From: an uncultured delta proteobacterium
GTDB taxonomy: Bacteria; Desulfobacterota; Desulfobacteria; Desulfobacterales; JAFDCJ01
Length of the DNA: 64,000 bases
Assembly: GCA_963769935.1 (NCBI GenBank)
Contig: CAVYNY010000020.1
Location: forward strand, 416,001 to 480,000
Reading direction: 5' to 3'
A model generated the notes under the pieces. The model searched no databases, was not told where the DNA came from, and saw nothing but the letters and a program-made list of their open reading frames with translations. Shown here piece by piece: positions 44,735 through 63,896 of the stretch. The position numbers and the translations under genes were made by a program. Within the stretch, counting starts at the first letter, position 1. Every line of letters begins with the position of its first letter.

Positions 44735-44968
44735 TAAATTTCTCCTATATCGTTTTTGCCATTGGAACAATGCCTTTATAAAGCTTATGGGTGTTTGCGC
44801 GCCGCATGTCAAGATCTACTTATTTTAAATCGCCGGCGGTTTGAATTTGAGGTGCAGCTTGATTTATCCGGGTAGATTGCATTACAATAATATAACTCGT
44901 AGCAGGATACCTGTCTTGATTTTATGCGGGTCCTGTTTAATGTTACAGGTAAGATTGGAAAATCGCCC

Positions 44969-46045
44969 ATGAGAGTGGAATGTCCGAACTGCCGGATGGT
45001 CAGTGCGGTCCGAGAAGATCGGATTGTGACATCGCATAATTCCATTAGTCTGTCCTGTCCCACTTGCAGGTTTTCAATGGTGCTGCATTTACAATCCAAC
45101 TTGGACAGGACCGACAGCCCGCCGGAGATTCAGAACCTGTCGGCAGATCAGCTAACATCCGGCCCACCGGCGAAAGATACCAGGAATCGGCGGCATATCA
45201 CGGCACTTAAAGCCAAAATTTTGCGCAGCCTGGTCAATCTGCCGTCCATGCCCCATATAATTCTCAAGGCACGGGAAATTTTATCGGATCCTGACTCCAG
45301 TCTAAGGGATCTATCCCGAGTTATTGAAATAGACCAGGCGCTGGTGGCTAAGGTGCTGACCCTGGCCAACTCAGCTTATTACGGGGTCAGCGGCATGGTG
45401 TCCTCAATTCAGCATGCTTCGGTTTTGCTCGGCCAGAAGATCCTGGGTCAAATGATTACGATATCGGCATCATCAGTGCTGCTCAACAAAAAGCTGAGAG
45501 GCTACGGTATTGCTCCCGATGATATGTGGCGGCATTCACTGGCCTGTGCTTTTGCTGCTAAAAGGATTGCTGAGAGGAATAATGATGGTCTGATCGATGA
45601 TGCCTTCACCGCAGGGCTGTTGCATGACGCCGGAAAAATAATTCTCGATCCGTATGTGATAAAACGCAAGGACGAATTCGAGCCGTTTGCCGGCCAAATT
45701 AATATGCCGCTATTCGAGATCGAAAAAGCGGTTTTCGGGTTCGATCATGCCGAGATCATGTCCCGGGCATGCCGGCTCTGGCGGTTTCCCGAGATCCAGG
45801 TAACGGCGATCCGATATCACCATGAGCCTTCCTGCGAGGAAGAAAATGAGCTGGCCTGCATGATCCACCTGGCTGACGTTCTGGCTAAATCAGCAGGGTT
45901 TGCTGCGGGACAGTCTGCAACCCTGGATCAAATCGCCCCCGAAATTCTGCAATTTCTACACATCAGGGCCCAAGATCTGGTTGTTGTCGCTGATGCTGTG
46001 AAGGAAGATTTGCAAAAAATAAAAGAGGAGTTGAAGGAGGTCTGA
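44969..46045 (+). CDS. Zinc-ribbon + HDOD-domain signalling protein
   Basis: CPNC/CPTC; LPSMP, DQALVAKVL.LANSAYY, WRHS, GLLHDAGK, FDHA, YHH. Confidence 0.88.
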   Translation: MRVECPNCRMVSAVREDRIVTSHNSISLSCPTCRFSMVLHLQSNLDRTDSPPEIQNLSADQLTSGPPAKDTRNRRHITALKAKILRSLVNLPSMPHIILKAREILSDPDSSLRDLSRVIEIDQALVAKVLTLANSAYYGVSGMVSSIQHASVLLGQKILGQMITISASSVLLNKKLRGYGIAPDDMWRHSLACAFAAKRIAERNNDGLIDDAFTAGLLHDAGKIILDPYVIKRKDEFEPFAGQINMPLFEIEKAVFGFDHAEIMSRACRLWRFPEIQVTAIRYHHEPSCEEENELACMIHLADVLAKSAGFAAGQSATLDQIAPEILQFLHIRAQDLVVVADAVKEDLQKIKEELKEV

Positions 46046-46096
46046 TTTTGCTTCAGCCTGGAGCCGGCCAGGCAGCTTCTCCGGTGGAGGCGGATA

Positions 46097-47257
46097 ATGT
46101 CGCTATTTGATCTAACCGAATTCTTTAGGCTTTCATCGGCGTTGCACTACAATCTGAGTGCGGCTTCTTTGAATCGATACACCGTCCTGATGTATATCAT
46201 CGGTGACAAACGCCTGGCCGCCGACGATAAGAAAGACCGGGAATACAAAGCTGTTTTGATGGAAGCGCTGGGATATCTTTTCAGTGCCTACAGTCAAAAG
46301 CGCCGGCGTCTGGGGCCCATGGCCGTTTTGCATCCCCTGCGCGCGGCAGCCATATTCACTCGATTCTTCGACGATTTCAACCTGATAAACCTCCTCACGC
46401 TGCTCTTTCATGATGTTCTCGAAGATGTTAAACCGGTCCAGTTTGAAGTTCATAAATGGAAAAGCATGGAAGAGCAGTTTTACAATCTCATGGAGCGGAT
46501 AGATCCGGCCGATGAATCCAAGCTGACCGCCAACCTGGTGTTCCTGACGCGGGTTGAAGGCGAATCTTACTATCATTATATCGGAAGGCTGCTGGACAAT
46601 GCCCGGAATTCCCCCGAGCTTGTTGCGGTGAAACTGGCAGACCGGTTGGACAATACGCTGGATATGCGCATCGACCTTGAAGATGCTCTGGCCAGAATAG
46701 ATTTTTTCGAGACCATCTTTCAGGTCCTGTTTGTCGCCAACTATCCGGGCTACAAACCCAAACTGGAGCACGCTCCGACGACGGCCATCAACGGCGCCAA
46801 GAGGCTGTATCAGCTTTTTAAAAATGCCGTCCTGTTGTCCCTAATCCGGCAGCATACGCCGCCGAAAGATCAGCGCACGGTAAAAATCCTCTTCAATGCC
46901 GTTGCCGAGGCAAGCTTGAAAGAAGCCCAGCGAACCTTGATCCACCTGATAAGCTACCATGTCAAAGACCTGCACGACCAGCGCAGCCTTGTTCTGGAGG
47001 CCATGCATTATTGCTACAGCGGCCGCAGCGACCTGGTTACCAGACCCGGCGGCAGTCAGTTGCTGGATGGAATGTTTTCGACCTACTTTAAGCACACCTC
47101 CAGTAAGATCCGCAATAAACAGCTGGATGTCTTATACCGGAACAAGCCCTTGATGCTGGAGGCATCGGTGGCCTTTCTGGTCATCTTTTTAAGTTTTCTA
47201 AACGACGAAACTTTCTATATCAAGGGTATCAGCGCGAGAGGCATCCGGGCGAGGTGA
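46097..47257 (+). CDS. HD_4 (RelA/SpoT hydrolase-like) domain protein with an uncharacterised C-terminal extension
   Basis: LHPLRAA, LFHDVLED, VAVKLADRLDN. Confidence 0.7.
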   Translation: MSLFDLTEFFRLSSALHYNLSAASLNRYTVLMYIIGDKRLAADDKKDREYKAVLMEALGYLFSAYSQKRRRLGPMAVLHPLRAAAIFTRFFDDFNLINLLTLLFHDVLEDVKPVQFEVHKWKSMEEQFYNLMERIDPADESKLTANLVFLTRVEGESYYHYIGRLLDNARNSPELVAVKLADRLDNTLDMRIDLEDALARIDFFETIFQVLFVANYPGYKPKLEHAPTTAINGAKRLYQLFKNAVLLSLIRQHTPPKDQRTVKILFNAVAEASLKEAQRTLIHLISYHVKDLHDQRSLVLEAMHYCYSGRSDLVTRPGGSQLLDGMFSTYFKHTSSKIRNKQLDVLYRNKPLMLEASVAFLVIFLSFLNDETFYIKGISARGIRAR

Positions 47258-47729: not shown

Positions 47730-50700
47730 ATGCATCAACAAGAACTCGTCAATTTGCTTGAATTTACAGGCAAGGACCCTACCAGGCTGGTCTTTGAGGA
47801 TGAACTCACCAGCGTGTACAACCGGCGATTCCTCTTCCAGTATTTTCAGTCCAGAATATCATGGGAGGATCTGTCGAAGGATCCCCTTTCGCTGATTATG
47901 ATGGACGTTGACAATTTTAAAGGCGTCAACGACACATACGGGCATCAGGTCGGTGACAAGGCCTTGGTCTGGGTGGCCGATATCCTGCGCGATGTGGCCG
48001 GAGATGACGGCTTGCCCATACGCTATGCCGGCGATGAATTCATGGTGTTGTTTTTGCATTGCGACAAGCAAACGGCACTCAAGCTGGGCAATCGTTTAGT
48101 CAACAAAGTGCGTTCGGAGGCTTTCAGGTTTGACGGCAACCATAAGACACTGCCGATCACCCTGAGTCTCGGGGTCGCCTCGGCCCCCGAGGATGCGAAG
48201 ACCGGTAAAGGCTTGATTCAACAGGCGGACGTTGCCCTTTACTTTGCGAAAAGCAGCGGTCGGGACTGCCTGGTGAATGCCAGCGAAGTTGTCCAGGAAG
48301 CCGTATTCGACAAAACCGCCATCAACCAGCTTAACGAAGTCAAACTGGTCGGCCGGGGACCTCAGCTGTCCCAGGTGAGCGAGGCGTTGAATAAATTCGG
48401 CCAGAAACAAAATCAGATGTTGATTGCCGAAGGCTCAGCCGGACTCGGCAAAACCGAGTTTTTAGATACCGTGCGGCGCAGTCTGGCCCGCACCAAGGCC
48501 TGGCGCATAAAGGTCAGCGGCGACCAGCAGGAAATGTTTCGCCCCTATTACCTGATGACCAGCATCCTGGTCAACCTGCTTAACTACCGCGGCGACCAGG
48601 GAACCGCCATCATCAACAGCTTGAGTAAAAGCCATCAGGCCTATATCGGCAAAATTCTGCCCCAGCTGACCACGGAGTCAGCACCTGCGGAAGATGAGGA
48701 TAATAGTTCCAGCCGCAAAGGCATATTTACGGCCCTGGCGCATTTGTTTATAAAGGCCGCCGCCAATCGCCCCGTTATCCTGTTTCTGGATGATCTGCAT
48801 CTGGCCGACGAAGCATCCCTGATTATGCTGCGTCAGCTGCTGTTGCTCAATAATTTCCCCCTTTTCATCTGTGGTGCGGCCGAAAGCATTCAGGAATCCG
48901 ACCGGGCCGAGAACAAGATTCCCCTGCACCGATTTTTCGAAATATACCAAAAGACGCTCGGTATCCGGACGATAACCCTGACACCGCTGACCGCCGCTGA
49001 TATCACCAAACATATTCAAGGATTATTTCCGAATATAAAGCTGCCTCCGGAGTTTGATCAGGAGATTGTCCGCATCAGCCAGGGCAATCCGCTTTTTATC
49101 AGTGAATTGCTGCGTAAACTGGTGCTTGATCGTAAAATCACCCTGGTGGGGCAGAAATGGACCCTTGAACAGCTGGAAGAAGGGTATCTTCCCAAAACCC
49201 TGGAAGATATTGTGACCCAAAAAATTGCCGCGCTGGATGAAGAAAGCCGCCTGATTCTGGATCAAGTTTCAGCCTTGGGGGGGGATGTCTCCCTGAGTAT
49301 GCTGGTGGGAAGTTCCGATCAGATGGAAACCAGGGTTTTAGAATTTATCGATCAGGCGCGCGCCCAGGGGCTTGTCAGCACGAATTTTCAACTCAACGAT
49401 GAAATTATTACGATCCTGGGAAAGCAGGTGCTGGCTATCACCTACGGTGCCATCCAGCCGGATCGCAAACATCAATTGCACGAACGCATCGGCAATTACC
49501 AGGAGACCCTTTATGAGCGCCAGCTGCTGCCTTCTGCGGCCACCCTGGCCTACCATTTCAAGCGTTCGACCAATCAGCAAAAAGCCGTGCGCTACGAAAA
49601 AATCCAGGCCATTGCCAACAATCGCAGTTTTAACGGTCAGGAGGCCGTGGCTTACACCGTTGAGGCCCCCGGGGAGACCACTGAAATTGATGTTCCTCTA
49701 AAGCCCGAAGACCTGAAGCGCGTGCCCGAAATCATTCGCGATTTTATGGTGGCCGTGCGCAATTTCAAACTCTACCCCCCGGGCAGTAAATCAATTGAAA
49801 TGATCAATCAGCAGTTTAAGGCCTCCCTCGATCAAATTCTGTCCGGCAACGAAACCTTAAATATTGTTCAGGTAAAGAACTCCATTCTGATAAACGGTCA
49901 AAAGATCGATGTTTCCGAATATAAGTTGGTGATGGATACCTTTTTGAAGCTGCTCAATCGCGTTGAGCTCAAGGGCCTTGCGTTTCACAGCGGCGTCACC
50001 GAGCAGGAGCTTGAAATACTGCTGCAGACACTTGGCAAAACCGATAAAAAGACATTTGATGCCGGCTTCTGGGACAATTTCTCCACCGAACACCGGATCA
50101 GCAACATCGAATTAAAACAGATCCAATATGCCGTAAAAGTCAAGGCCGTCGCCGGCGCCGGGCCCGGCCCGGCCGCCGCCCCGGGGCAAACGCCGGCCGT
50201 TTCAGCACCGACCGAGCAGCTGACATTGCCGCTCGGCCACCAGGAGATGAAAGCGATTCCGGAAATTCTGCGTAATCTGGTTGCTGCGGCGCGCGTGATA
50301 AAGCTCTATCCGATAAAAAGCAAGTCGGTTGCCAACACCATCAACAAACTTCTGGAGAACCTGCAGCGATTTTTTACCACCCAGCGGGTTCTGGCTTTTT
50401 CGCGCGCCGGCGATACGCTGCTGGTCAACGGTGAGAAGCTGGATACTTCAGGCGCTTCGGAGTTTCGAGGGCTCGCCGACAATTTTCTGACATTGCTGGG
50501 TGAGATCGGGCTGGAGAGTATCACCTTTCTGGAAAGTATTTCCGTGCACCAACTGGAAACATTTATCGGGGTACTGGGCGATTTCCCCGAATCGGAAGTT
50601 AATACGGACTTCTGGAAGGTTCTGGCTGAAGAACAGGGCCTGACTGCGATTTTATTTGACCAGCAGTTGTATGAAATTCAAGTAGCGCATAGCCTGTCGG

Positions 50701-51992
50701 CCGGGGCGACCCCCGCGGCCGGCGGTGAACCTCCCATGATGATGCTCAAGGGCATCCGGGACGAACCCATTGCGCCGGAGCGCTTTGAAAAATACCTGGA
50801 TGACCTGCCTGAACAGGTCAATGATTTATTTTTCGATGGTAAGCCGGCCTTAATCGAGCAGGCGGTCTATCGGGTCTACTTGGGATTGCAGGAGCGCGAG
50901 CTGATCATGCGCAAGAAAGTCATCGACGTTTGGCGCCTGATACTGAACCGCTTGACGCTGGCCTATCAGCATGATTTTGCCAAAATCCTGGCCGATCCGC
51001 TTCTGACCGATTTCGACGTTGAAAAAGAACCCAAGATTATTGTGGAGATGGCCTCGCTGTTGAGCCGGTTGGTGACGCTTTTTATTCAGTTTGTTGAATA
51101 TCCGCTGGCATCCCGTATTCTCGGGCATCTTGACAAACGGTTTCAAAAGTTTAAGCAAGCGAAGGATTCCAATGCCCAGCTGCTGGTGCGCAGCATGAAT
51201 CGGCAACTGGAACCCATGGCCCAGGAGCTTCTGATAGAGGATCTCAAATCCGCCGACGCTGCCCGCCAGCGCAATGCCGCTCAGCTTTTGGGCAGCTTGC
51301 GGTATGTGGCGGCGCCGATGCTGATGGAGATTATTCAGCGCGAAGATAATTATCGCGCCCGGCAAATTGCCGTCATTTTGCTGGAGAAACTGGGACCCAA
51401 AGCGGTTGCGCGTCTCAAGCGGTTGCTGGTGCTGGAAATCAGTGCGGAGGAGCGGGCACGGATTCTGGATGTTATTGATGCTCTGACCTCGGATTTGAAA
51501 ACCGAGTTGTTCCATGCCTTGGGGGATGAAGATCCCAACGTGCGGCGCGCAGCCTATCGACTGGCGGGGCGCCTGAACGACAGCCGGATGGTGGAATGGC
51601 TGCGTGAATTTATGCAAAGTCAGAAGCCCGCCCTGGCGGCCAGCGCCGTCAAATGCCTGGGTAAGCTCAAGCCGCCGGATGTTGAAGTCGAATTGATTGC
51701 CCTGTTGAATTCCACCGGCGACGATCAACTGCGCATTGCCTGCTGCCGGGTGCTGGGTCAAATTGCCAAGCCGGTCAGCATCGATGTCTTGTTCAAGCTT
51801 TTGCTGCCCAAAAGGTCTTTCCCTCTTCGTAAAAATCATAACTCCCGGGTTCGGGCGGCGGCCGCCTTTGCGCTGGGGCAAATCTCCCACCCCAAAGCCG
51901 TGGAGAGCCTCGCCAGATTCGTTGAAGACCGCGACCCCCGCGTGCGTGAAATTGCGCGCAAAGCGACGCAATCACCCGCCTCCCCAAGCTAG
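47730..51992 (+). CDS. 1420-aa GGDEF + AAA-ATPase + HEAT-repeat protein
   Basis: DELTSVYNRR, DVDNFK.VND.YGH..GD, RYAGDEF; GSAGLGKT, FLDDLH.AD, GNPLF; two KLYP..SKS repeats; HEAT motifs DEDPNVRRAA, VRAAAAFALG, DRDPRVREIA. Confidence 0.85.
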   Translation: MHQQELVNLLEFTGKDPTRLVFEDELTSVYNRRFLFQYFQSRISWEDLSKDPLSLIMMDVDNFKGVNDTYGHQVGDKALVWVADILRDVAGDDGLPIRYAGDEFMVLFLHCDKQTALKLGNRLVNKVRSEAFRFDGNHKTLPITLSLGVASAPEDAKTGKGLIQQADVALYFAKSSGRDCLVNASEVVQEAVFDKTAINQLNEVKLVGRGPQLSQVSEALNKFGQKQNQMLIAEGSAGLGKTEFLDTVRRSLARTKAWRIKVSGDQQEMFRPYYLMTSILVNLLNYRGDQGTAIINSLSKSHQAYIGKILPQLTTESAPAEDEDNSSSRKGIFTALAHLFIKAAANRPVILFLDDLHLADEASLIMLRQLLLLNNFPLFICGAAESIQESDRAENKIPLHRFFEIYQKTLGIRTITLTPLTAADITKHIQGLFPNIKLPPEFDQEIVRISQGNPLFISELLRKLVLDRKITLVGQKWTLEQLEEGYLPKTLEDIVTQKIAALDEESRLILDQVSALGGDVSLSMLVGSSDQMETRVLEFIDQARAQGLVSTNFQLNDEIITILGKQVLAITYGAIQPDRKHQLHERIGNYQETLYERQLLPSAATLAYHFKRSTNQQKAVRYEKIQAIANNRSFNGQEAVAYTVEAPGETTEIDVPLKPEDLKRVPEIIRDFMVAVRNFKLYPPGSKSIEMINQQFKASLDQILSGNETLNIVQVKNSILINGQKIDVSEYKLVMDTFLKLLNRVELKGLAFHSGVTEQELEILLQTLGKTDKKTFDAGFWDNFSTEHRISNIELKQIQYAVKVKAVAGAGPGPAAAPGQTPAVSAPTEQLTLPLGHQEMKAIPEILRNLVAAARVIKLYPIKSKSVANTINKLLENLQRFFTTQRVLAFSRAGDTLLVNGEKLDTSGASEFRGLADNFLTLLGEIGLESITFLESISVHQLETFIGVLGDFPESEVNTDFWKVLAEEQGLTAILFDQQLYEIQVAHSLSAGATPAAGGEPPMMMLKGIRDEPIAPERFEKYLDDLPEQVNDLFFDGKPALIEQAVYRVYLGLQERELIMRKKVIDVWRLILNRLTLAYQHDFAKILADPLLTDFDVEKEPKIIVEMASLLSRLVTLFIQFVEYPLASRILGHLDKRFQKFKQAKDSNAQLLVRSMNRQLEPMAQELLIEDLKSADAARQRNAAQLLGSLRYVAAPMLMEIIQREDNYRARQIAVILLEKLGPKAVARLKRLLVLEISAEERARILDVIDALTSDLKTELFHALGDEDPNVRRAAYRLAGRLNDSRMVEWLREFMQSQKPALAASAVKCLGKLKPPDVEVELIALLNSTGDDQLRIACCRVLGQIAKPVSIDVLFKLLLPKRSFPLRKNHNSRVRAAAAFALGQISHPKAVESLARFVEDRDPRVREIARKATQSPASPS

Positions 51993-52018: not shown

Positions 52019-52813
52019 ATGGACAGAAGAGACATTTTACTGCCGACTGAAAGCGTCTCGATCGATTCGAATGTGTTGCGCGAAACTTATCAGATCCGGT
52101 CCTATGAAGTCGATTGTCGCAATCGACTATCAATTCTTGCCCTGTTCAGCTTCATGCAGGAGGCTGCCAGCAAACATGCGGCAGCACTGGGTGTATCGAT
52201 CCACCAGCTGATATCCGAAAATTTTACCTGGCTGCTTTCCCGCCTTAAAGTTAAAATTGCTTCCTACCCCGGCTGGAACGATCGAATCCAGGTCAGCACA
52301 TGGCCGTCGGGGACGCAACAATTGTTTGCCCTGCGGGATTTTGAAATAAGAGACGGCGACAACCGGGTAATCGCGGCCGCAGTTTCAGCCTGGCTGGTGA
52401 TTGATCTTCAAAAACGCCGGCCGGTCCGCATTGCACCTTTTGTAGAGCGGCTCAAGCCGATTGAGGGCAGCCATATCCTGCCCGACAGGCTGGATAAGCT
52501 GGCGGCATTAAGACAACACGATCATGAAAGGGATTTTGTCGTCCGGTATTCGGATTTGGATATCAACCAGCATGTGAACAATGTGAGTTTTGTGGAATGG
52601 GTCGTTGAAGGTGTGCCGCCGGCCGTCTTAAAGACCTCGGTGCCGGCCGAGATAGAGATCAACTTCCTGGCGGAAGCCTTTTATGATGACCGGATCCTGG
52701 CAACCTGTCACCCCCTCGACCCGAATATTACCGAATTCCGACACAGCCTCACCCGCCGGCAGGACGGCCGCGAACTGGCGCGCGCCAGAACAGTATGGCG
52801 AGAGGTGGCTTGA
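52019..52813 (+). CDS. Acyl-ACP thioesterase (FatA/FatB-like)
   Basis: IRSYEVD, MQEAA..HA, VRYSDLDINQHVNN. Confidence 0.9.
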   Translation: MDRRDILLPTESVSIDSNVLRETYQIRSYEVDCRNRLSILALFSFMQEAASKHAAALGVSIHQLISENFTWLLSRLKVKIASYPGWNDRIQVSTWPSGTQQLFALRDFEIRDGDNRVIAAAVSAWLVIDLQKRRPVRIAPFVERLKPIEGSHILPDRLDKLAALRQHDHERDFVVRYSDLDINQHVNNVSFVEWVVEGVPPAVLKTSVPAEIEINFLAEAFYDDRILATCHPLDPNITEFRHSLTRRQDGRELARARTVWREVA

Positions 52814-53557
52814 GTTGATCGAGTTGCGGGTTTCCGGTTTGCGGGGCGAAGACCCCAATGGGCCGGAACCTGAAACCTGCCTTCCGGCCTCTACTTTCCA
52901 CTTTTTTCCCGCTGTCATTTGTTTTCTATTTCAAGTATATCACCGGCCCTGAGTCGTACTGGTCCGCCACGAAGAGTTGAACAAGAAGTCAAGTAGTGGA
53001 ATGCGAGTTGTGGGTTACGAGTTGCGGGGCGCGAACTGAGGGATGCTTCGAGATCATCGCTGATAGAGCCTATTTGGTTTATTAAGTTTATTTCTTCAGC
53101 ATTTAAAAAGAATTTGCACGCCCTAAGAATTTCACCATCAGCCACGCTATCTATCAAAAATGCAATGATCGCACTCCCGAATTATAGTATGCGAGAGTGC
53201 GATCTTGTCTATTCTTCTATCCCGGTCCGTACTGTAATCAAAAGCATAATCTTCCGCACGCAATCCCGCTGCCACAAAATCGCTCGGATCGCAGTCGACT
53301 TTAACGACAGCATTTCTCGAAATGTTACCACTTTGGAAAATCAAAGAGGGTGAGTCGATATAACTAATTGATTTAAAACGATCTCTTGGCATAATCCTTA
53401 TTGATGATGGTTTGAACGTATTATGATTATTTAAGTTTACAGGCAAATGGGCGATATAACATTGGTAGTCCAAGCCTGCTTAAGTTGGACTATCAATCCA
53501 TGGAAAAGGCCGGAACTATATCGCTAAGAAACTAATAATTGGGGAGAACAGCAATCC

Positions 53558-54043
53558 ATGAATCGCTCCATCGAATTCACCATAAAGCCAAAATGGGATG
53601 AGATCGAAAACGTCAGGAATCAGAGTACCAATTTTTTGGCCTCTCAAGGCATGTCAAATGACTCTGTACAAGCCTTTGCCATGGTTATCAGTGAGCTTGT
53701 TGAAAATAGTGTTAAATACGGAAGATTTACATCAACTCAAAGTGAAGTGATCGTCACTGTTAAGATTTCCGAAAATATGATCATCGCCGAAGTAATAAAT
53801 CCGGTTGATGGATCCGTTTACCACCACCTGAGAAAATTAGATAAGACTTTGCAATGGATTCGGGGATTTCAAGATCCGTTCCAGGCATATGTTCAAAGAA
53901 TTAGAAAAATATCCAGAAAGCCGCTGGATGATGAATTTAGTGGTTTAGGCCTAACGAGAATAGCATATGAAGGTCAAGCAATCCTTGATTTTTTTCTGAC
54001 CGAAGGCAATCAGTTGAATGTATCGGCGATTTCACACTTTTAG
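53558..54043 (+). CDS. Anti-sigma-factor-type (GHKL) Ser/Thr kinase
   Basis: MVISELVENSVKYG (N box), SGLGLTRIAYEG (G box); GGAG RBS. Confidence 0.75.
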   Translation: MNRSIEFTIKPKWDEIENVRNQSTNFLASQGMSNDSVQAFAMVISELVENSVKYGRFTSTQSEVIVTVKISENMIIAEVINPVDGSVYHHLRKLDKTLQWIRGFQDPFQAYVQRIRKISRKPLDDEFSGLGLTRIAYEGQAILDFFLTEGNQLNVSAISHF

Positions 54044-54051
54044 GAGACAAC

Positions 54052-54426
54052 ATGGGAAAACAAGAATCATATGCCAAAAATTTATTAAAAATTGAGATCT
54101 TAGAAAATGAGGACTCAATAACGACATCCTGGACCGGAAAAAGCATCGACCGCAATCCAGGCCAGTTTATTAACCCAATTTTAGTAAAGCTTGTCAATAA
54201 AAGCAATGAAGAGAATAAACGGATAGTCTTGGACTTTCGAAAGATTGTTTATATGAACTCTTCAACAATTACACCACTAATCAAAATTCTTGAAAGAGCC
54301 AATAGAGGCAAAATATATATTACCGTTGAATACAATAAGAATTTGAAATGGCAAGATCTAAACTTTTCGGCATTAAAAATATTTCAGACAAAAGATAAGC
54401 GAGTCGAAATCAAAGGAATAGAATAA
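54052..54426 (+). CDS. STAS-like / anti-sigma-factor antagonist
   Basis: IVLDFRKIVYMNSSTI (phospho-acceptor motif), LKWQ; AGGAG RBS. Confidence 0.72.
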   Translation: MGKQESYAKNLLKIEILENEDSITTSWTGKSIDRNPGQFINPILVKLVNKSNEENKRIVLDFRKIVYMNSSTITPLIKILERANRGKIYITVEYNKNLKWQDLNFSALKIFQTKDKRVEIKGIE

Positions 54427-54430
54427 TAAG

Positions 54431-55820
54431 ATGAATCTACATACCACCGATCTGAAAGGCGACCTTATCGAGGGCGAAGCGGTTATTCCGATTGAGATAC
54501 AGTTTAAATCCAAATATTCATTTTTAGTGAAACCTTTGAATGGATACAAGTTCAAGGATGGAAATGAGTATTCCAACATTGTCATTCAAGCTCACAATGA
54601 TTCTTTTGAACTTGGATGCTGCCGGGTGTTGACTAAACGGAATAATGGCGGAAATATAGGAAGACTAATTTTTATAAATGATATTTACGATCTTGAGAGC
54701 CTAGTTCACCATCATAAATTGGTGAAGATCCAGGATGAGTTTCTTAATCTTTCACTCCTTTTGGAACGCAAAGACCAGGTTAGTGAATTCTTCAAAAACT
54801 TTGTATCAAATTTAACCTATGATTTAAATGTATATAAGTATACATTCGATAGTCTTGATGCTGAATTTGCCTGTGAATCCGTCGAAGTAAAAAAGTCCTT
54901 GGAGCAAGCCATCTTGAGAACCGAAGGGGCCGCATTTTTCAATTTTTTAGACGAAAAAACGAAGAGCTGGAAAATATAGTGAAAGGATTCAACAAATCAG
55001 AACACGAGGTTCATGGCTTTTATTTCAGAGAACCCAGCTTTGGAATACTACAACGGGTGCCCCTTTCATGGCACGGACAAATCTGAAGCCTCGAGGTTAT
55101 GCCGGAGATTCAGAAATGATGAGCATGATATACGCCAACGACTACAGGGGTGAATCGACAATTTTCAAGCTGATGCATAAGCATCGCTCAAACAGCCGGC
55201 TGTGCAGGCTGTCAGAAATAGACGACATGCAATAGTAAAAATAATTCGTCAAATAAAAGCGAGAACTAGAAGAAACGATATTCCAAGACTAAAAATATTA
55301 TCAGTTGCCGTGGGCTCAAAAGAGCTCGAGGAGCGCTTTCGACCACAGATGATTGCAGCAAACTTAGTTTTGCGTTGCTTGATCAAGATTGAGCGCGCTG
55401 CTTGAAGCAAAAGAAAGGATTCGCTAAATTGAGGGAAAGTTAAATACAAAACTCGAAGTCGATTTCCTCAACGAATCGGTGCGCACATCGCTTGCGATGC
55501 CGCAGATAGATGCAAAATGGGGGCAGTTCGATTTTATCTATTCAATGGGGCTTTTTGACTACCTTACACCACCCGCGGCATCGATGGTTCTCGGAAAGCT
55601 ATATCAGTTGCTCAAGCCCGGGGGAGAAACGGCGATCGGCAATTTCCATGCCTCAAACCCCAACCGGTATTATATGGAATACTGGCTTGATTGGGTTCTT
55701 TACTATAGAACGGAAGAAGATTTCACGAGTTTGTTAAAAGGCGTTTCAACCGCAGAGATTAAATTATTCTTCGAAGACAACGGGGTGCAAATGTTTCTTC
55801 ATGTTAAAAGGCTGGAATGA
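54431..55820 (+). pseudogene. PhcB-like class I SAM-dependent methyltransferase, split by several frameshifts (error or decay)
   Basis: Across frames: HGFYFR/QLW, NLKPRGYAGDSEMM..IY, QAVRNRR, KILSVA, LLDQD, FDFIYSMGLFDYL, LLKPGG..IGNFH, MEYWLDWVLYYR. Confidence 0.72.
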
Positions 55821-55905
55821 TTCCTTTCTTGATTGCATTATGGGAAAAGCGATCATGTTGAATGCTGGATCTGTTTGAAACGCTGAATTTGCTGGGGACT
55901 CATAA

Positions 55906-57265
55906 TTGCAGGGTATAACGAACCATAGACGTTCAGATGATTTTAATTTCGGTGAAGAGGATTTTAACAATTATCTGAACAGCATCATTCACAATTGGCT
56001 GGGCACATTGACGACATTGGGCTATACGCTCGTGCCGGCATTCTTCCTTCTGGACTACTTTACGATGCCGAAGGAACTGCTGCCAACTTTCGGGGTTTAT
56101 CGGCTGATTTCGACCTTATATGTCTAATCGAATATTACATCATTTGTGATATCAAACCGAGCGTATATTCATACGATCACGGTTATTTTGTTTCGCGAAA
56201 TATCGGCGGAATCATTGCCCTGATGACCGTAGACCTCGGAGGATTTAACTCGAATCATTATGCCGGACTTAACCTCGGAATCATAGGGGTTAACCTGCTC
56301 CTGCCATGGAAGAGCAGGCACTCGGCAATCAACAGCCTGATTATAATTATGTTGTATGTCGTATTTAATTTAATGGCGGATAATAATTTTAATCCTGACA
56401 TATTGGCAAACAATTTATTCTTTTTGACGTCGACCGCTATAATAGCGGTAAGCATCAATCATGTGAAGCATAACCTTATTAGAAAAGAGTTCGATCTGCT
56501 GGTTGAATTGAAGAAGGCGCGTGACGCGCTTTGGAGCGAGATGGAGCTTGCCAAGCGCATACAGACAGCATTGTTGCCCAATAAACAGAGAATAAAAGGC
56601 TTCGATATCGCGAGTGTCATGCTCCCTGCGAAGGAAGTCGGCGGTGATTATTACGACATTATTGAAACTCCAGAGGGTGGAAAATGGATTACAATAGGAG
56701 ATGTTTCAGGGCATGGGGTTGATTCGGGTTTAATTATGATGATGGCGAAAACATGCATCAGTTCGACAGTGACAAGCAATCGAAATTGTCAGCCCTCTGA
56801 ATTGCTTATTTTCGTAAACCAAGTTATAAGAGAGAACATTTCAAGGCTAGGGTCTGACGATTACATGACCATGATGGCTATCCGCTTTAACGAGTCTAAG
56901 ATGACTATCGCAGGCAAACATCAAGACGTGATTATCTACCGATCGGCCTTAAATAAAACTGAAACAGTCCCGGTAAACGGTACCTGGCTCGGAATTACCG
57001 ATAAAATTGAAAATTATCTTACAGATATAAATAAAAATATCGGAGACGGTGACATCGTTTTGTTGTTCACCGACGGTGTTACGGAAAGTATCAACCAAAA
57101 CGGTGAAATGTACGGCCAGGTAAGGTTAGAACAGTCTCTCAATCAATATGCCGATCTGCCGACAAACACATACTGGAGAAAATTGTTGAGGATGTGAAGG
57201 ATTTTCAAGAAGAGCAGTATGACGATATGAGCCTGGTAATAGTAAAAAAACGACGATCACATTGA
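55906..57265 (+). CDS. Membrane-bound SpoIIE/RsbU-type PP2C phosphatase (frameshifts at ~56120 and ~57170)
   Basis: About 6 TM helices; AKRIQTALLP, EVGGDYYD, IGDVSGHG, LFTDGVTE; terminal QYDDMSLVIV in a shifted frame ending 57265. Confidence 0.85.
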
Positions 57266-57310
57266 TGACCCCATGTTAGACAAGGATTTTATGCTTTGGG
57301 AAAATCATTT

Positions 57311-59621
57311 ATGATATCAATGATAAATGATTCAGATGAATTCCAGATGAATTTGGTCACTTTGTCTTTTCATCAAGAATTCGAAAAAAAATTCCGCCGG
57401 GAGTATTTCAGAAAATCCCTAAAATATGTCCGCAAATCCATGCTCCTGGCAATTTTCTTCTATGGATTATTTGGCATCCTGGATGCTTTGATTGTTCCTG
57501 AAATCAAAGAACAAATCTGGGTAATTCGCTACGCAGTTTTTGTGCCCTATGTCTTTTTGATGTTCCTGTTTTCTTTTACCGGTTATTTTGCAAGGCACTG
57601 GCAGATCTGTGTTGCTACTATTATAGTAATTGCTGGATTGGGTATTATCGAAATGATTCTAATTGCACCCTATCCGGCGAACTATCTTTATTATGCCGGT
57701 TTGATTCTCGTTATAATCTTCGGCTATACATTTTTTAAACTCAGGTTTATTTGGGCAACCTTGGCAGGCTGGATAAGTCGTCATCGCATACGATGCGCTG
57801 CCGGATGGGTAATTGATACACCGATTCACATATTCTTAAGCAACAATTTCTTCTTTCTGTCGGGTAACATCATCGGTATGTTTGCATGTTATTCGATCGA
57901 GTTATATTGCCGCAAGGTGTTTATTAAAACCCGTTTGCTAAAAGCTGAAAAAAGGAAAGTCAAAGCCTCGAATCGTGAGCTTGAAAAAAGAGTCAGGGAA
58001 CGTACGACGCAATTGGTCGATATAAACAATGAGCTGCGAAATGAGGTGACTGAAAGAAAAATAGCCGAGAATGCTGCAAGAGAAAGCGAGTTGAAATTTA
58101 AATGCTTAAGCGAAAACTCGCCGGAAATTATTTATACACTCGATTACAATGGAAGCTTCAGCTACGTTAATCCCGCCTGGGAAAAAGTGCTCGGGTACAG
58201 CCGCTCAGAAGTGCTCAGGAAATTTTTTGTTGATTTTGCATCTGAAAAGGATGTCAAAAAATATATTGGAATGTTCAAACGGATCCGAAACAACAGGGAT
58301 ACGATCATTGATGTCGTCGGGTCCTTGACGCATAAGGATGGTTCAGAGCGCTTGTTTAACCTCAGCGGGGCGCCCAATTTGAACTCAGATGGTCAGGTTG
58401 TCGGCATGGTCGGACTCATTAAAGATATCACCGAACAACAGAAGCTCCAAATGCAGCTTATTCAAGCTCAAAAAATGGAAGCTCTCGGCACGCTTGCTGG
58501 GGGAATCGCCCACGATTTCAACAACATCCTAACCGCCATTATAGGATATGGTGAGCTTGCCTCCATGGATGTCTCTGATGACGAGGTACTGGCAAATAAT
58601 ATTTGCAATATGTTAAAAGCCTCCCAGCGAGCCAAGGAATTGGTTGGGCAGATACTCGCTTTTAGCCGCCAGACCCAGGAAACTCTGAAACCGGTTGAAA
58701 TCAAAAATATAGCCGGGGAAGTTTTAAAGCTGCTAAGAGCTTCGCTGCCCAGCACTATTGAAATCCGTCCCGACATAGACCCGGAGTGCGGAATTGTGGA
58801 GGCTGTTCCCTCCCAAATACATCAGCTGTTGATGAATCTTTGTACGAACGCTGCCGCGGCAATGGCGGCAGATGGAGGATTGCTTGCAGTAAGTCTTAAA
58901 AATGAAAAAATCGACCGTTTTCAGGCTAAAATGTGTCAGAATATAGAGCCCGGCCTTTATGTCGTCTTAACCGTTAAGGACACCGGGCAAGGGATGGCGC
59001 CTGAAATAATGGGAAAAAATATTTGATCCGTACTTTACCACAAAAGAAAAAGGCAAAGGGACCGGACTCGGATTGGCTGTCGTGCATGGCATTGTAAATA
59101 GGCACCATGGGGGGATCACCGTTGAAAGCCAGGTCGGGGTCGGCACCACATTCCGCGTATATTTGCCGGTTCTGGAGTTGGAACTAACCACCGAAAGGGA
59201 AGAACCAAACCAGAATTTGCCTGAAGGCCATGAATGTATCCTCTTTGTGGATGATGAGGAAGATATTCTCGATACCGGATCACGAATGTTATCCCGGCTT
59301 GGATATGAAGTTGTTACCAAATCAAACAGTATTGAGGGACTGGATTTATTCAGGGAAAATCCTGAGCGGTTTGATTTGGTGATAACCGATATGACCATGC
59401 CTAAATTGACGGGCGACAAATTGGCCCGTGAGCTGATGCAGATTCGACCTGATATACCGGTTGTTCTTTGCACCGGATATAGTGAAAATATAAATGAGGA
59501 AACGGCCAAGAAGATCGGCATCAAAAAGCTCAGTATCAAACCATTTGGAATTCGGGATTTAGCAGAGACAGCCCGCAGGGCGATAGACGAAGCCAAGGCT
59601 CAGAATTCAGTAATTGTCTAG
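57311..59621 (+). CDS. Membrane PAS hybrid sensor histidine kinase with receiver domain (frameshift at ~59012)
   Basis: TM region, PAS (VNPAW), [22 protein letters not shown]; removing one G restores [32 protein letters not shown]. Confidence 0.88.
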
Positions 59622-59794
59622 TTTCAGCATGGCCGAGAAGCCATGACCACCCGTCGATTTCGGGGTTAATGATCCTGGATTTTTCCCGGAATCGTGCAGC
59701 CTGCTTTAAGCATTTAATTTAGCAATCCATGAATGCCCAACAGAAATCAAATTATTCCGCCTGCCAGCTGCCGAATTCTAATACTTCTATCCAT

Positions 59795-60604
59795 CTATTT
59801 CAAGTATATGACCGGCCCGGAGGTGTACTGGTCCGCCACTGTCAGCCGGGCGCTGCAGCGGGTGAGGGCCTGGGAGACTTCTTCGAGTGCTTTATAGGGC
59901 GTGTTGTTGATTTCACTGAGATGGGCCAGGATGACGTGCTGCAGCTTCTCATGCTGCAATTCATGGAGCAGTTTTCTGGAGTCGGAGTTGGAAAGATGCC
60001 CGGTCCGGCTTTGAATGCGCTGTTTCAGCGGCCAGGGGTAGGGTCCGGTCTCCAGCATTTGCGGATCGTGATTGGCCTCGAGAATCAGCAGCGCACAATG
60101 TTTTAAATGCTCCTTTACCATGGCGGTTGCGATTCCCATGTCGGTTGCGATGGCCATTCGGGTTCCGTTGCTGCCGACGGTAAAGCCGGCCGGGTCCTCG
60201 GCATCGTGCGATATTGAAAACGGATGGATGGCAAGATCGCGGATGTTGAAGGTGGTTCCGCATTCAAACGGCCTGATTTCATGCGGCCTGCCGATTTCAG
60301 CCGCGGCGCTGTGCGTGTGCTGATTTATGTAGACCGGCAGTTTATAGCGCCGGGAAAGGATGCCAACCCCCCTGGTGTGATCGCTGTGCTCATGGGAGAC
60401 GATAATGGCATTCAGCTTTGCCGGATCCAGCCCCCGGGAGGTCAACCGGCGCTGAATCTCCTTGCCGGACAGCCCGGCGTCGATCAGGATGGATGTGTGA
60501 CCGTTGCTGATATAAGTCGCATTGCCCTTGCTGCCGCTGGCCAGGGTGCAGACGGACAGGGAATATTCCTGGGGTTCGTCATGTTTTGGAGTATCAGAGT
60601 TCAT
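59795..60604 (-). CDS. MBL-fold metallo-hydrolase (YycJ/WalJ-like)
   Basis: LASGSKGN, SHEHSDH, SHDA, TDMG, LEANHD, GHLSN, AHLS. Confidence 0.9.
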   Translation of the reverse strand: MNSDTPKHDEPQEYSLSVCTLASGSKGNATYISNGHTSILIDAGLSGKEIQRRLTSRGLDPAKLNAIIVSHEHSDHTRGVGILSRRYKLPVYINQHTHSAAAEIGRPHEIRPFECGTTFNIRDLAIHPFSISHDAEDPAGFTVGSNGTRMAIATDMGIATAMVKEHLKHCALLILEANHDPQMLETGPYPWPLKQRIQSRTGHLSNSDSRKLLHELQHEKLQHVILAHLSEINNTPYKALEEVSQALTRCSARLTVADQYTSGPVIYLK

Positions 60605-61011: not shown

Positions 61012-61476
61012 ATGAATACTCTTGAAATTGAAACAAAAGCCGTGAACCCTCTGATTGGAGACACAATTCCGCTTCCCGCCTATGCGACTGAAGGATCGGC
61101 TGCCATTGATTTGAGAGCCTGCATAGCGGATGAGATCGAGATTCAGCCCGGAGAAACAGCATTGATCGGCAGCGGAATTGCGGTTAATATAAAAGATCCG
61201 AATATCGTCGGTATTATCGCACCGCGTTCGGGTTTGGGGATAAAGAAGGGGGTTGTGCTGGCCAATACGATCGGCGTTATCGATTCCGATTACCAGGGTG
61301 AAATTAAGATCGGACTTTTTAACCGGGGGAAAGCCACCTATATTGTAAAGCCCGGTGAACGCATATGCCAAATGCTGTTTATACCTGTAATTAAGGCTGT
61401 CCTGAATTTAGTTCAGGATTTCAGCAATGAAACAGCTCGGGGGCAAGGGGGTTTCGGCCATAGCGGGAAAATTTAA
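61012..61476 (+). CDS. dut: dUTP diphosphatase
   Basis: GSAAIDLRA, PRSGLG, GVIDSDYQGEI, GERICQ, RGQGGFGHSG. Confidence 0.95.
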   Translation: MNTLEIETKAVNPLIGDTIPLPAYATEGSAAIDLRACIADEIEIQPGETALIGSGIAVNIKDPNIVGIIAPRSGLGIKKGVVLANTIGVIDSDYQGEIKIGLFNRGKATYIVKPGERICQMLFIPVIKAVLNLVQDFSNETARGQGGFGHSGKI

Positions 61477-61512
61477 GTGGGGATCGGCAGACAGTTAGGG
61501 CCTAAAGAGAGG

Positions 61513-61542
61513 GCGGCGTTTCAGACTGTGTTGAAACGCCGC
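61513..61542. terminator. Hairpin between convergent dut and katG
   Basis: GCGGCGTTTCA-N8-TGAAACGCCGC; no clear U-tract. Confidence 0.5.
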
Positions 61543-61673
61543 GCTCATATGTTGCTGACAGCCTCCGTGAGCATTCAAACCATCCGTCCGTTCGTGGCGG
61601 TTGTCGCTTCCTGATCATCCGATTTGCAGTTCAGAATACGCTTCGGAAGCCCACGAAGATCTTTATGCTGCGA

Positions 61674-63896
<2,223 letters not shown>

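Follow-up and report, generated by a model that had tools for sequence, protein, structure and literature searches.

Introduction

The closest described relatives of the locus analysed here, a five-gene cassette at positions 53558-59621 of a 64,000-nt stretch of DNA from an uncultured delta proteobacterium (GCA_963769935.1, contig CAVYNY010000020.1:416,001-480,000, forward strand; host genome 8 Mb), are the phc quorum-sensing system and the SiaABCD switch. In the following, the whole stretch is called the window and all positions use its numbering. The phc system (PhcB, PhcS, PhcR, PhcQ, PhcA) is described from Ralstonia and Cupriavidus, and the literature that we found confines phc signalling to Ralstonia and its Burkholderiaceae relatives. 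Its methyltransferase PhcB and its sensor PhcS co-vary with the type of signal (PMC7694676). In SiaABCD of Pseudomonas aeruginosa, the unphosphorylated STAS protein binds and activates the enzyme of its own operon (PMC7278518).

The cassette encodes, in this order and on one strand, a GHKL-type kinase, a STAS protein, a methyltransferase, a membrane-bound PP2C phosphatase and a membrane-bound PAS hybrid kinase. With phc it shares a homologous methyltransferase of equal length (463-468 aa) that is directly followed by the gene of a homologous sensor, the methyltransferase motifs KPxGYAGD, RNR, GLFDYL and W-x4-YR, and the sensor residues LD, P and YYxGL. In contrast to phc, the sensor is part of a PP2C phosphatase instead of a histidine kinase, a kinase and a STAS protein are added, no PhcR/PhcQ pair is found among the core genes, and the methyltransferase falls into a separate clade. 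With SiaABCD, the cassette has in common a four-gene unit of membrane PP2C, GHKL kinase, SiaC-family STAS protein and one enzyme (PMC7278518). Here, however, a methyltransferase takes the place of the diguanylate cyclase, the acceptor residue is predicted to be a serine while SiaC uses Thr68, and the PP2C protein matches SiaA in the catalytic domain only (52 and 84 bits vs. a cut-off of 700).

More distant parallels concern single components. The STAS motif corresponds to that of SpoIIAA, the kinase shows a weak SpoIIAB match and the phosphatase is of SpoIIE type, i.e., the parts resemble the SpoIIAB/SpoIIAA/SpoIIE and RsbW/V/U switches, from which the cassette differs by a putative signal synthase within the unit. 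The sensor profile also matches the first membrane domain of human adenylyl cyclase 5 (AC5), i.e., one of the six-helix receptors of class III adenylyl cyclases. CqsS and LqsS can be likened to the sensor by description, since both bind lipophilic autoinducers according to PMC4821796, the main text of which makes no mention of PhcS or phosphatases. Our best reading, drawn by analogy, is that phc-type signalling occurs here as a phc-like arrangement which would be wired like SiaABCD, with the putative signal synthase in the place of SiaD.

Results

Gene layout and conservation of the cassette

The earlier note, made from the bare sequence, had described five co-oriented genes in an AT-rich block. 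All five are found, with a GC content of 0.416 between the two flanking repeats described below compared to 0.519 and 0.555 in the flanks. The kinase gene (53558-54043, plus strand, 161 aa) and the STAS gene (54052-54426, plus strand, 124 aa) are intact and separated by 8 bases. Another 4 bases downstream follows the gene of a PhcB-family class I S-adenosylmethionine (SAM) methyltransferase (54431-55820, plus strand), which is broken in seven places as assembled. The phosphatase gene (about 55906-57265, plus strand, with an approximate start codon) has two frameshifts and combines an N-terminal PhcS-like multi-pass membrane domain with a SpoIIE-type PP2C domain. The hybrid histidine kinase (57296-59621, plus strand) carries a related membrane domain followed by PAS, HisKA, HATPase and REC domains. 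All motifs quoted in the note could be located, i.e., KPRGYAGD, AVRNRR, GLFDYL and MEYWLDW in the methyltransferase and YMNSS in the STAS protein. The closest named homologues come from Desulfobacterales records. A scan for promoters and terminators stayed at chance level (15 hits vs. 16.5 expected and 6 vs. 6.3 expected, respectively).

Whether the gene order recurs in other genomes was a point at which the earlier proposal could have failed; it did not. Using the C-terminal piece of the methyltransferase as query, we obtained 214 related stretches and examined the best 80 among them. The order kinase, STAS, methyltransferase and membrane PP2C is present in 70 of these 80 loci, which stem from records of Desulfobacterota, Calditrichota, Marinimicrobia, Spirochaetota, Myxococcota and Gammaproteobacteria. 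Since many of the loci are kin, the 70 cases do not represent 70 independent events; the records nonetheless span several phyla. A kinase with a related membrane domain accompanies 39 of the 70 full cassettes, i.e., the hybrid kinase is an accessory and not a core gene. The ten exceptions comprise three loci at a contig end, two without a STAS gene between kinase and methyltransferase, two reduced forms (methyltransferase, kinase and histidine kinase), one split enzyme, one solitary methyltransferase and one kinase-methyltransferase fusion. The methyltransferase of the reduced form nests within the cassette clade of the tree described below.

We considered the kinase-methyltransferase fusion as evidence for binding between the two proteins and rejected it, given that the kinase C-terminus, the STAS protein and the methyltransferase N-terminus are missing; it looks like a deletion or misassembly. 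Longer forms of the kinase were not found, which is weak evidence. Neither a SiaD-type diguanylate cyclase nor a candidate sigma-factor family recurs beside the cassette in the 80 loci; the former is also absent between the two repeats, while the rest of the genome was not searched for a sigma factor.

Some loci show further variation. One Spirochaetes contig holds two cassettes (L059 and L067), and a stand-alone copy of the membrane domain (188 aa, L022:8366-8932) is located between methyltransferase and PP2C in another locus. Within a sample of the genus Leptospira, the enzyme is present in 9 of 22 genomes, two of which carry it twice, in G072 at a distance of 13 kb.

A PhcS-like membrane domain on the phosphatase

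The catalytic part of the phosphatase is a SpoIIE domain (E 1e-23). We compared profiles of 76 PP2C membrane domains and 56 PhcS domains, using disjoint sets. The PP2C membrane domain aligns with PhcS at a probability of 98.6 (E 1e-15, 184 columns), the membrane domain of the hybrid kinase at 95.5, and all controls (three reversed, three shuffled) remain below 0.5. That is, when both membrane domains are compared with the PhcS sensor, as the earlier note had proposed, the phosphatase gives the stronger match. An earlier version of the comparison between PP2C and PhcS (E 3e-48) was discarded, because its sets could overlap in members. When the six frames of the 8-Mb genome are searched with a hidden Markov model (HMM) of the PhcS domain, the PP2C protein of the window is the sole significant match (E 7e-6; next 0.055). 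The residues shared with PhcS are an LD and a P after the first helix as well as YYxGL. The hydropathy scan yields 4 to 5 helices, and six are inferred from homology. In Pfam and NCBIfam, there is no family that fits this domain; AC_N matches weakly in 4 of 25 members.

A methyltransferase with PhcB-family sequence

Intact relatives of the methyltransferase have about 465 aa and combine an N-terminal beta domain, a helical middle part and a Rossmann fold, as seen in the AlphaFold model of an intact homologue (predicted local distance difference test, pLDDT, of 91). This model, the fold searches and a Pfam Methyltransf_25 match at the cut-off agree on a class I SAM-binding fold. The top structural neighbour is 3ocj, an uncharacterised Bordetella protein (Z 18.9, root mean square deviation 3.1, 248 aligned), while the methyltransferase profile has no sequence match among solved structures. 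The fold searches barely probe the N-terminal beta domain, and its label as PilZ-like rests on relatives. A PhcB model from a single sequence reached a pLDDT of 39 and was not used.

As PhcB references, we used Cupriavidus proteins, one of them labelled PhcB by its source, together with metagenome loci that share an identity of 55% or more with these; the one of these loci that was listed has a four-gene phcBSRQ-like layout. Against 65 PhcB-group sequences, HHalign reports a probability of 100 (E 1e-46, 427 columns), and of the 77 core positions that are conserved within the cassette clade, the PhcB group conserves 40 as well. The identity to PhcB is 28% over the C-terminal 285 residues. In a FastTree phylogeny of 299 core domains, from which shorter fragments were left out and whose backbone is weak, the PhcB group forms a separate clade (support 1.0) and the cassette enzymes group elsewhere, with PilZ-bearing clades in between. 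Judged by its sequence, the enzyme is thus a member of the PhcB family and not a PhcB orthologue. Of the likeness to PhcB that the earlier note had seen in the motifs, family membership stands, given the HHalign probability and the shared motifs, while membership in the PhcB clade does not.

The family is large, with 1668 representatives at E ≤1e-30. Among the 120 homologues listed, many bear the automatic JGI label 'extracellular factor 3-hydroxypalmitic acid methyl ester biosynthesis protein'. Several members carry N-terminal PilZ or cyclic nucleotide monophosphate (cNMP)-binding domains (L206:4881-6404, L212:5712-7370, L216:5875-7281, P0418 and P0426), which points to a control of the enzyme by binding partners such as second messengers. 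We also searched for a binding surface by relating the enzymes of 73 full cassettes to 5 from loci without STAS. Here, 8 of 113 positions are changed, mostly in the catalytic domain, such that no clear surface emerges and the candidate was dropped.

Kinase and STAS protein

The kinase shows a weak HATPase_c_2 match with an N-box (ELVEN) at residue 46 and SGLGL at residue 128. Its profile weakly matches SpoIIAB (E 0.007), and DUF6272, the SiaB family, is hit below the cut-off (E 0.002) with the GHKL N-box present. The STAS protein exceeds the cut-off of Pfam SiaC (PF09345, 26.6 bits vs. 24.5). The best NCBIfam matches are the slr1658 superfamily for a homologue of the kinase (47.5 bits, E 1e-12) and the slr1659 superfamily for the STAS protein (36 bits, E 7e-9), yet both lie well under the respective cut-off of 100. 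The motif YMNSS covers STAS residues 67-71 and aligns with the DSS motif of SpoIIAA and TM1442; both serines are invariant in 49 sequences. Ser70/Ser71 are accordingly predicted from the alignment to be the phosphorylation site.

In forms that lack STAS and PP2C, the N-box asparagine of the kinase is lost in 3 of 4 distinct cases. No cognate STAS protein was found in any of the five STAS-less genomes searched (best E 6e-5, compared to 5e-55 for the window gene).

Synthase-sensor pairs beyond the cassette

We further screened 250 genomes drawn from the phylum. The methyltransferase is present in 22 and the sensor in 23 of them, and 16 genomes hold both, compared to about two if the occurrences were independent, a ratio that is inflated by kinship. 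For 17 of the 22 PhcB-family loci, a PhcS-like sensor is encoded alongside, i.e., adjacent or fused in 15 of 20 examined distant loci plus two that are directly downstream by coordinates. At the distant loci, the sensor is joined to outputs of hybrid-kinase, GGDEF or HD type, while it is joined to PP2C in the cassette. The same pairing is found on a Pseudanabaena plasmid; a case from Rhizobium is weak. In one locus, a single 852-aa open reading frame (ORF) combines membrane sensor, PAS, GGDEF and methyltransferase (L222:5625-8183). This fusion may be an artefact of assembly or read-through, since L221 from the same genus has two separate ORFs.

The closest non-cassette methyltransferases within the phylum sample (L203, L204 and L205) form one family, with a PilZ match in L203. 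No sensor, kinase or STAS gene is found within about 5 kb of them; their genomes have sensor matches elsewhere.

Two additional loci of the host genome itself contain related components. The first (C36:44113-48404) is intact and encodes a methyltransferase 51% identical to an intact cassette enzyme, a kinase in which the N-box asparagine is missing, and a hybrid kinase with a related membrane domain, but no STAS or PP2C protein; a similar neighbourhood is seen in three other genomes (G020, G017, G013). The second is a further hybrid kinase with a related membrane domain (C35:148578-150944), with no family methyltransferase within the 13 kb examined. It is divergently oriented to ORFs that, by their N-termini, resemble polyketide synthase genes.

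Insertion site

The block is bounded by a 46-bp direct repeat (91% identical) with copies at 52925-52970 and 59794-59839, which are the only two copies genome-wide and had not been noticed in the earlier note. The repeat duplicates the 3' end of a host gene for a metallo-beta-lactamase (MBL)-fold hydrolase (59795-60604, minus strand, Lactamase_B_2), i.e., the right copy is the present 3' end of this gene and the left one its second copy; they are the likely right and left attachment sites. An empty site is also available, since a 281-base metagenome contig (run X1, one differing letter) joins position 52955 to 59825 and omits 6869 bases. A flanking direct repeat that restores the end of the target gene and an empty site are thus both at hand, and the cassette arrived by an insertion of 6.9 kb at the 3' end of its target, the MBL-fold gene. 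Since run X1 additionally contains near-identical pieces from the island interior, filled and empty forms coexist in one sample. No integrase was found in the island; five genes fill it apart from four short ORFs at its ends, which have no PHROGs match.

Left of the island lies the gene of an acyl-acyl carrier protein (ACP) thioesterase (52019-52813, plus strand), a resident neighbour of the MBL-fold gene. We considered it as a supplier of substrate and rejected this idea, because it adjoins the MBL-fold gene in relatives that lack the cassette. Its family does not recur beside the cassette in the 80 loci. Among 22 other genomes of the genus, 19 have the MBL-fold gene and 9 carry both flanking genes on a single contig. 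The distance between these two genes is 0.2-0.4 kb in four of the 9 genomes, 1.1-1.3 kb in two and 5.7-7.7 kb in three. Neither the cassette nor a second repeat copy is present in the 7 of these 9 slots that were examined. The three largest slots (L177, L178 and L179) carry differing cargo, which reads by N-terminal sequence as a set of amino-acid ABC transporter genes, small heat-shock and DnaJ-like genes, and mixed genes.

Further left, the window encodes a zinc-ribbon and HDOD protein followed by an HD-domain protein (44924-47257) and then a 1420-aa protein with GGDEF, AAA ATPase and HEAT repeats (47730-51992) before the thioesterase. The HD gene is near the thioesterase in relatives too, which have in addition a 153-aa opposite-strand gene between the 1420-aa-protein gene and the thioesterase that is missing in the window. 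To the right, a GC-rich stretch (61012-63869) holds what we recognise by sequence as presumably a dUTPase-like ORF and a 731-aa catalase-peroxidase-like gene.

Frame breaks in the assembled copy

By comparison with intact homologues, we located seven breaks in the methyltransferase (near 54960, 55034, 55186, 55315, 55335, 55391 and 55427), which is thereby split over three frames, two in the PP2C gene (near 56117 and 57166), and in the hybrid kinase a single frame change near 59010 plus a short stretch near 57775-57800 that compensates itself. In about 30 kb outside the island, 3 of 29 match rows against proteins of relatives show a frame change or stop (with some genes counted twice), such that the island with its about 11 breaks within 54960-59020 is unusually damaged.

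This density would fit a decaying island, i.e., the methyltransferase, phosphatase and hybrid kinase genes of the window copy would be genuine pseudogenes, and the cell would rely on the intact paralogue on contig C36. An intact methyltransferase and hybrid kinase are indeed available there, and a near-identical population has the empty site. We nevertheless regard such decay as unlikely. All breaks but one are indels of one to three bases. Contigs of two independent public studies supply letters at 55309, 55314, 55332 and 55390/55391 that are absent from the window, and both differ from it at the two bases next to the single stop; the depth of these contigs is low (3 to 20), and one of them is only about 90% alike. 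The kinase and STAS genes are intact, and catalytic motifs are preserved. Furthermore, an island carried by a minority would receive thinner read cover and thus more errors. The frameshifts in the three genes are therefore probably consensus errors. The question of decay stands independent of that of the mechanism.

Discussion

We consider it reasonably probable that the cassette enzyme makes a phc-like, lipophilic methylated signal that is read by the sensor and passed on to the predicted kinase/STAS switch. The methyltransferase would methylate a fatty-acyl substrate with SAM as PhcB does, although the substrate, to judge from the sequence, is perhaps a different one. Because the enzyme groups apart from the PhcB clade, its product may differ from that of PhcB, such that a 3-hydroxy fatty-acid methyl ester is a candidate for it. 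The product would bind the membrane domain of the PP2C protein and alter its activity, the kinase would phosphorylate and the phosphatase dephosphorylate Ser70/71 of the STAS protein, and hybrid kinases with a related membrane domain could relay the signal to gene regulation. As target of the switch, we propose the methyltransferase itself, since SiaC activates the enzyme of its operon and the methyltransferase is the only other invariant gene here. By this analogy, the STAS protein or the kinase may possibly control the methyltransferase and thus cause post-translational autoinduction, a step that we hold with some reserve. The earlier note had proposed a methyl-ester signal coupled to a partner switch. 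Homology, gene order and the sensor match speak for this core, while the hybrid kinase drops out as a core gene and the window copy is broken.

Several observations weigh against this reading. Among the conserved core positions of the enzyme, 37 of 77 differ from PhcB, the profiles of the N-terminal domains alone fail to align (probability 1.6), and the mean tree distance between cassette and PhcB enzymes is 4.5 compared to 1.5 within the cassette clade. The references contain no PhcB or PhcS labelled as R. solanacearum, for which Cupriavidus, Janthinobacterium and metagenome sequences were substituted. The pairing is incomplete, i.e., 5 of 20 distant methyltransferase loci have no nearby sensor and 7 of 23 sensor-bearing genomes have no methyltransferase match. 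The sensor profile matches AC5 over 184 columns (E 9e-6), and the membrane domain is close to the MASE8, MASE2, MASE6 and MASE11 clusters. Since it belongs to a broad receptor family, the likeness to PhcS leaves the ligand unfixed. No conserved output gene flanks the cassette; besides histidine kinases and antisense frames, each neighbour family is seen in at most 5 of the 80 loci. The kinase gene persists, degenerate, in loci where the STAS gene is gone, and a pure kinase-on-STAS role fails to explain a kinase that outlasts its partner. Finally, three of the five genes are broken in the copy as assembled.

The divergence of the enzyme and the breadth of the sensor family are also what favours the strongest alternative for the mechanism, namely that the pair handles a lipophilic molecule which is not a fatty-acid methyl-ester density signal, either because another metabolite is methylated or because an incoming lipid cue is inactivated. 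The structural neighbours, i.e., the uncharacterised 3ocj and diverse small-molecule methyltransferases, would accommodate this as well. On the other hand, the only characterised family member known makes a quorum signal that is read by the adjacent sensor (PMC6989110, PMC7694676), adjacency is maintained across distant clades, and the PhcS profile singles out the PP2C protein of the window genome-wide, which makes this alternative rather improbable. That the methyltransferase modifies a protein (receptor or STAS) as a CheR-like adaptation enzyme with no diffusible signal is very doubtful. In its favour are weak CheR Pfam matches in several homologues, the 852-aa fusion and the tight genetic linkage. 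However, the CheR matches lie under the cut-off and for the most part span about 45 residues of the SAM-binding fold, the fusion may be an artefact given the separate ORFs of L221, and PhcB is required for the signal in the supernatant (PMC6989110).

For the preferred phc-like reading, we found no published description of the cassette in a search that had most subscription journals and supplements outside its reach. Likewise, neither the wiring of a phc-type synthase and receptor to a Sia-like switch nor a Ser/Thr phosphatase as quorum receptor, with a switch that possibly gates its own synthase, was found described. We also found no paper that ties a PhcB methyltransferase or 3-hydroxypalmitic acid quorum sensing to Leptospira.

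The kinship of the sensor to the membrane domains of adenylyl cyclases would provide a bacterial handle on the ligands of the latter, for which no modulator has yet been mapped to a binding site in these domains according to PMC12414865. In a wider view, which we offer tentatively and with less confidence than the mechanism itself, phc-type signalling could be widespread, as a modular family of quorum systems based on lipid signals, in which synthase and PhcS-type receptor travel together and are joined to varied outputs such as histidine kinases, diguanylate cyclases and HD-type hydrolases, here a PP2C/STAS switch that would gate the synthase by phosphorylation. Intact copies in isolates of Saccharospirillum and Aquisalimonas (L049, L051, L072) make the wiring testable. 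Occurrence of the pair in Desulfobacterota, spirochaetes, myxobacteria and marine Gammaproteobacteria would point to a candidate class of signals in groups where the literature searched showed none. If the wider reading is true, Desulfobacterota, myxobacteria and some Leptospira would each gain candidates for a quorum signal.

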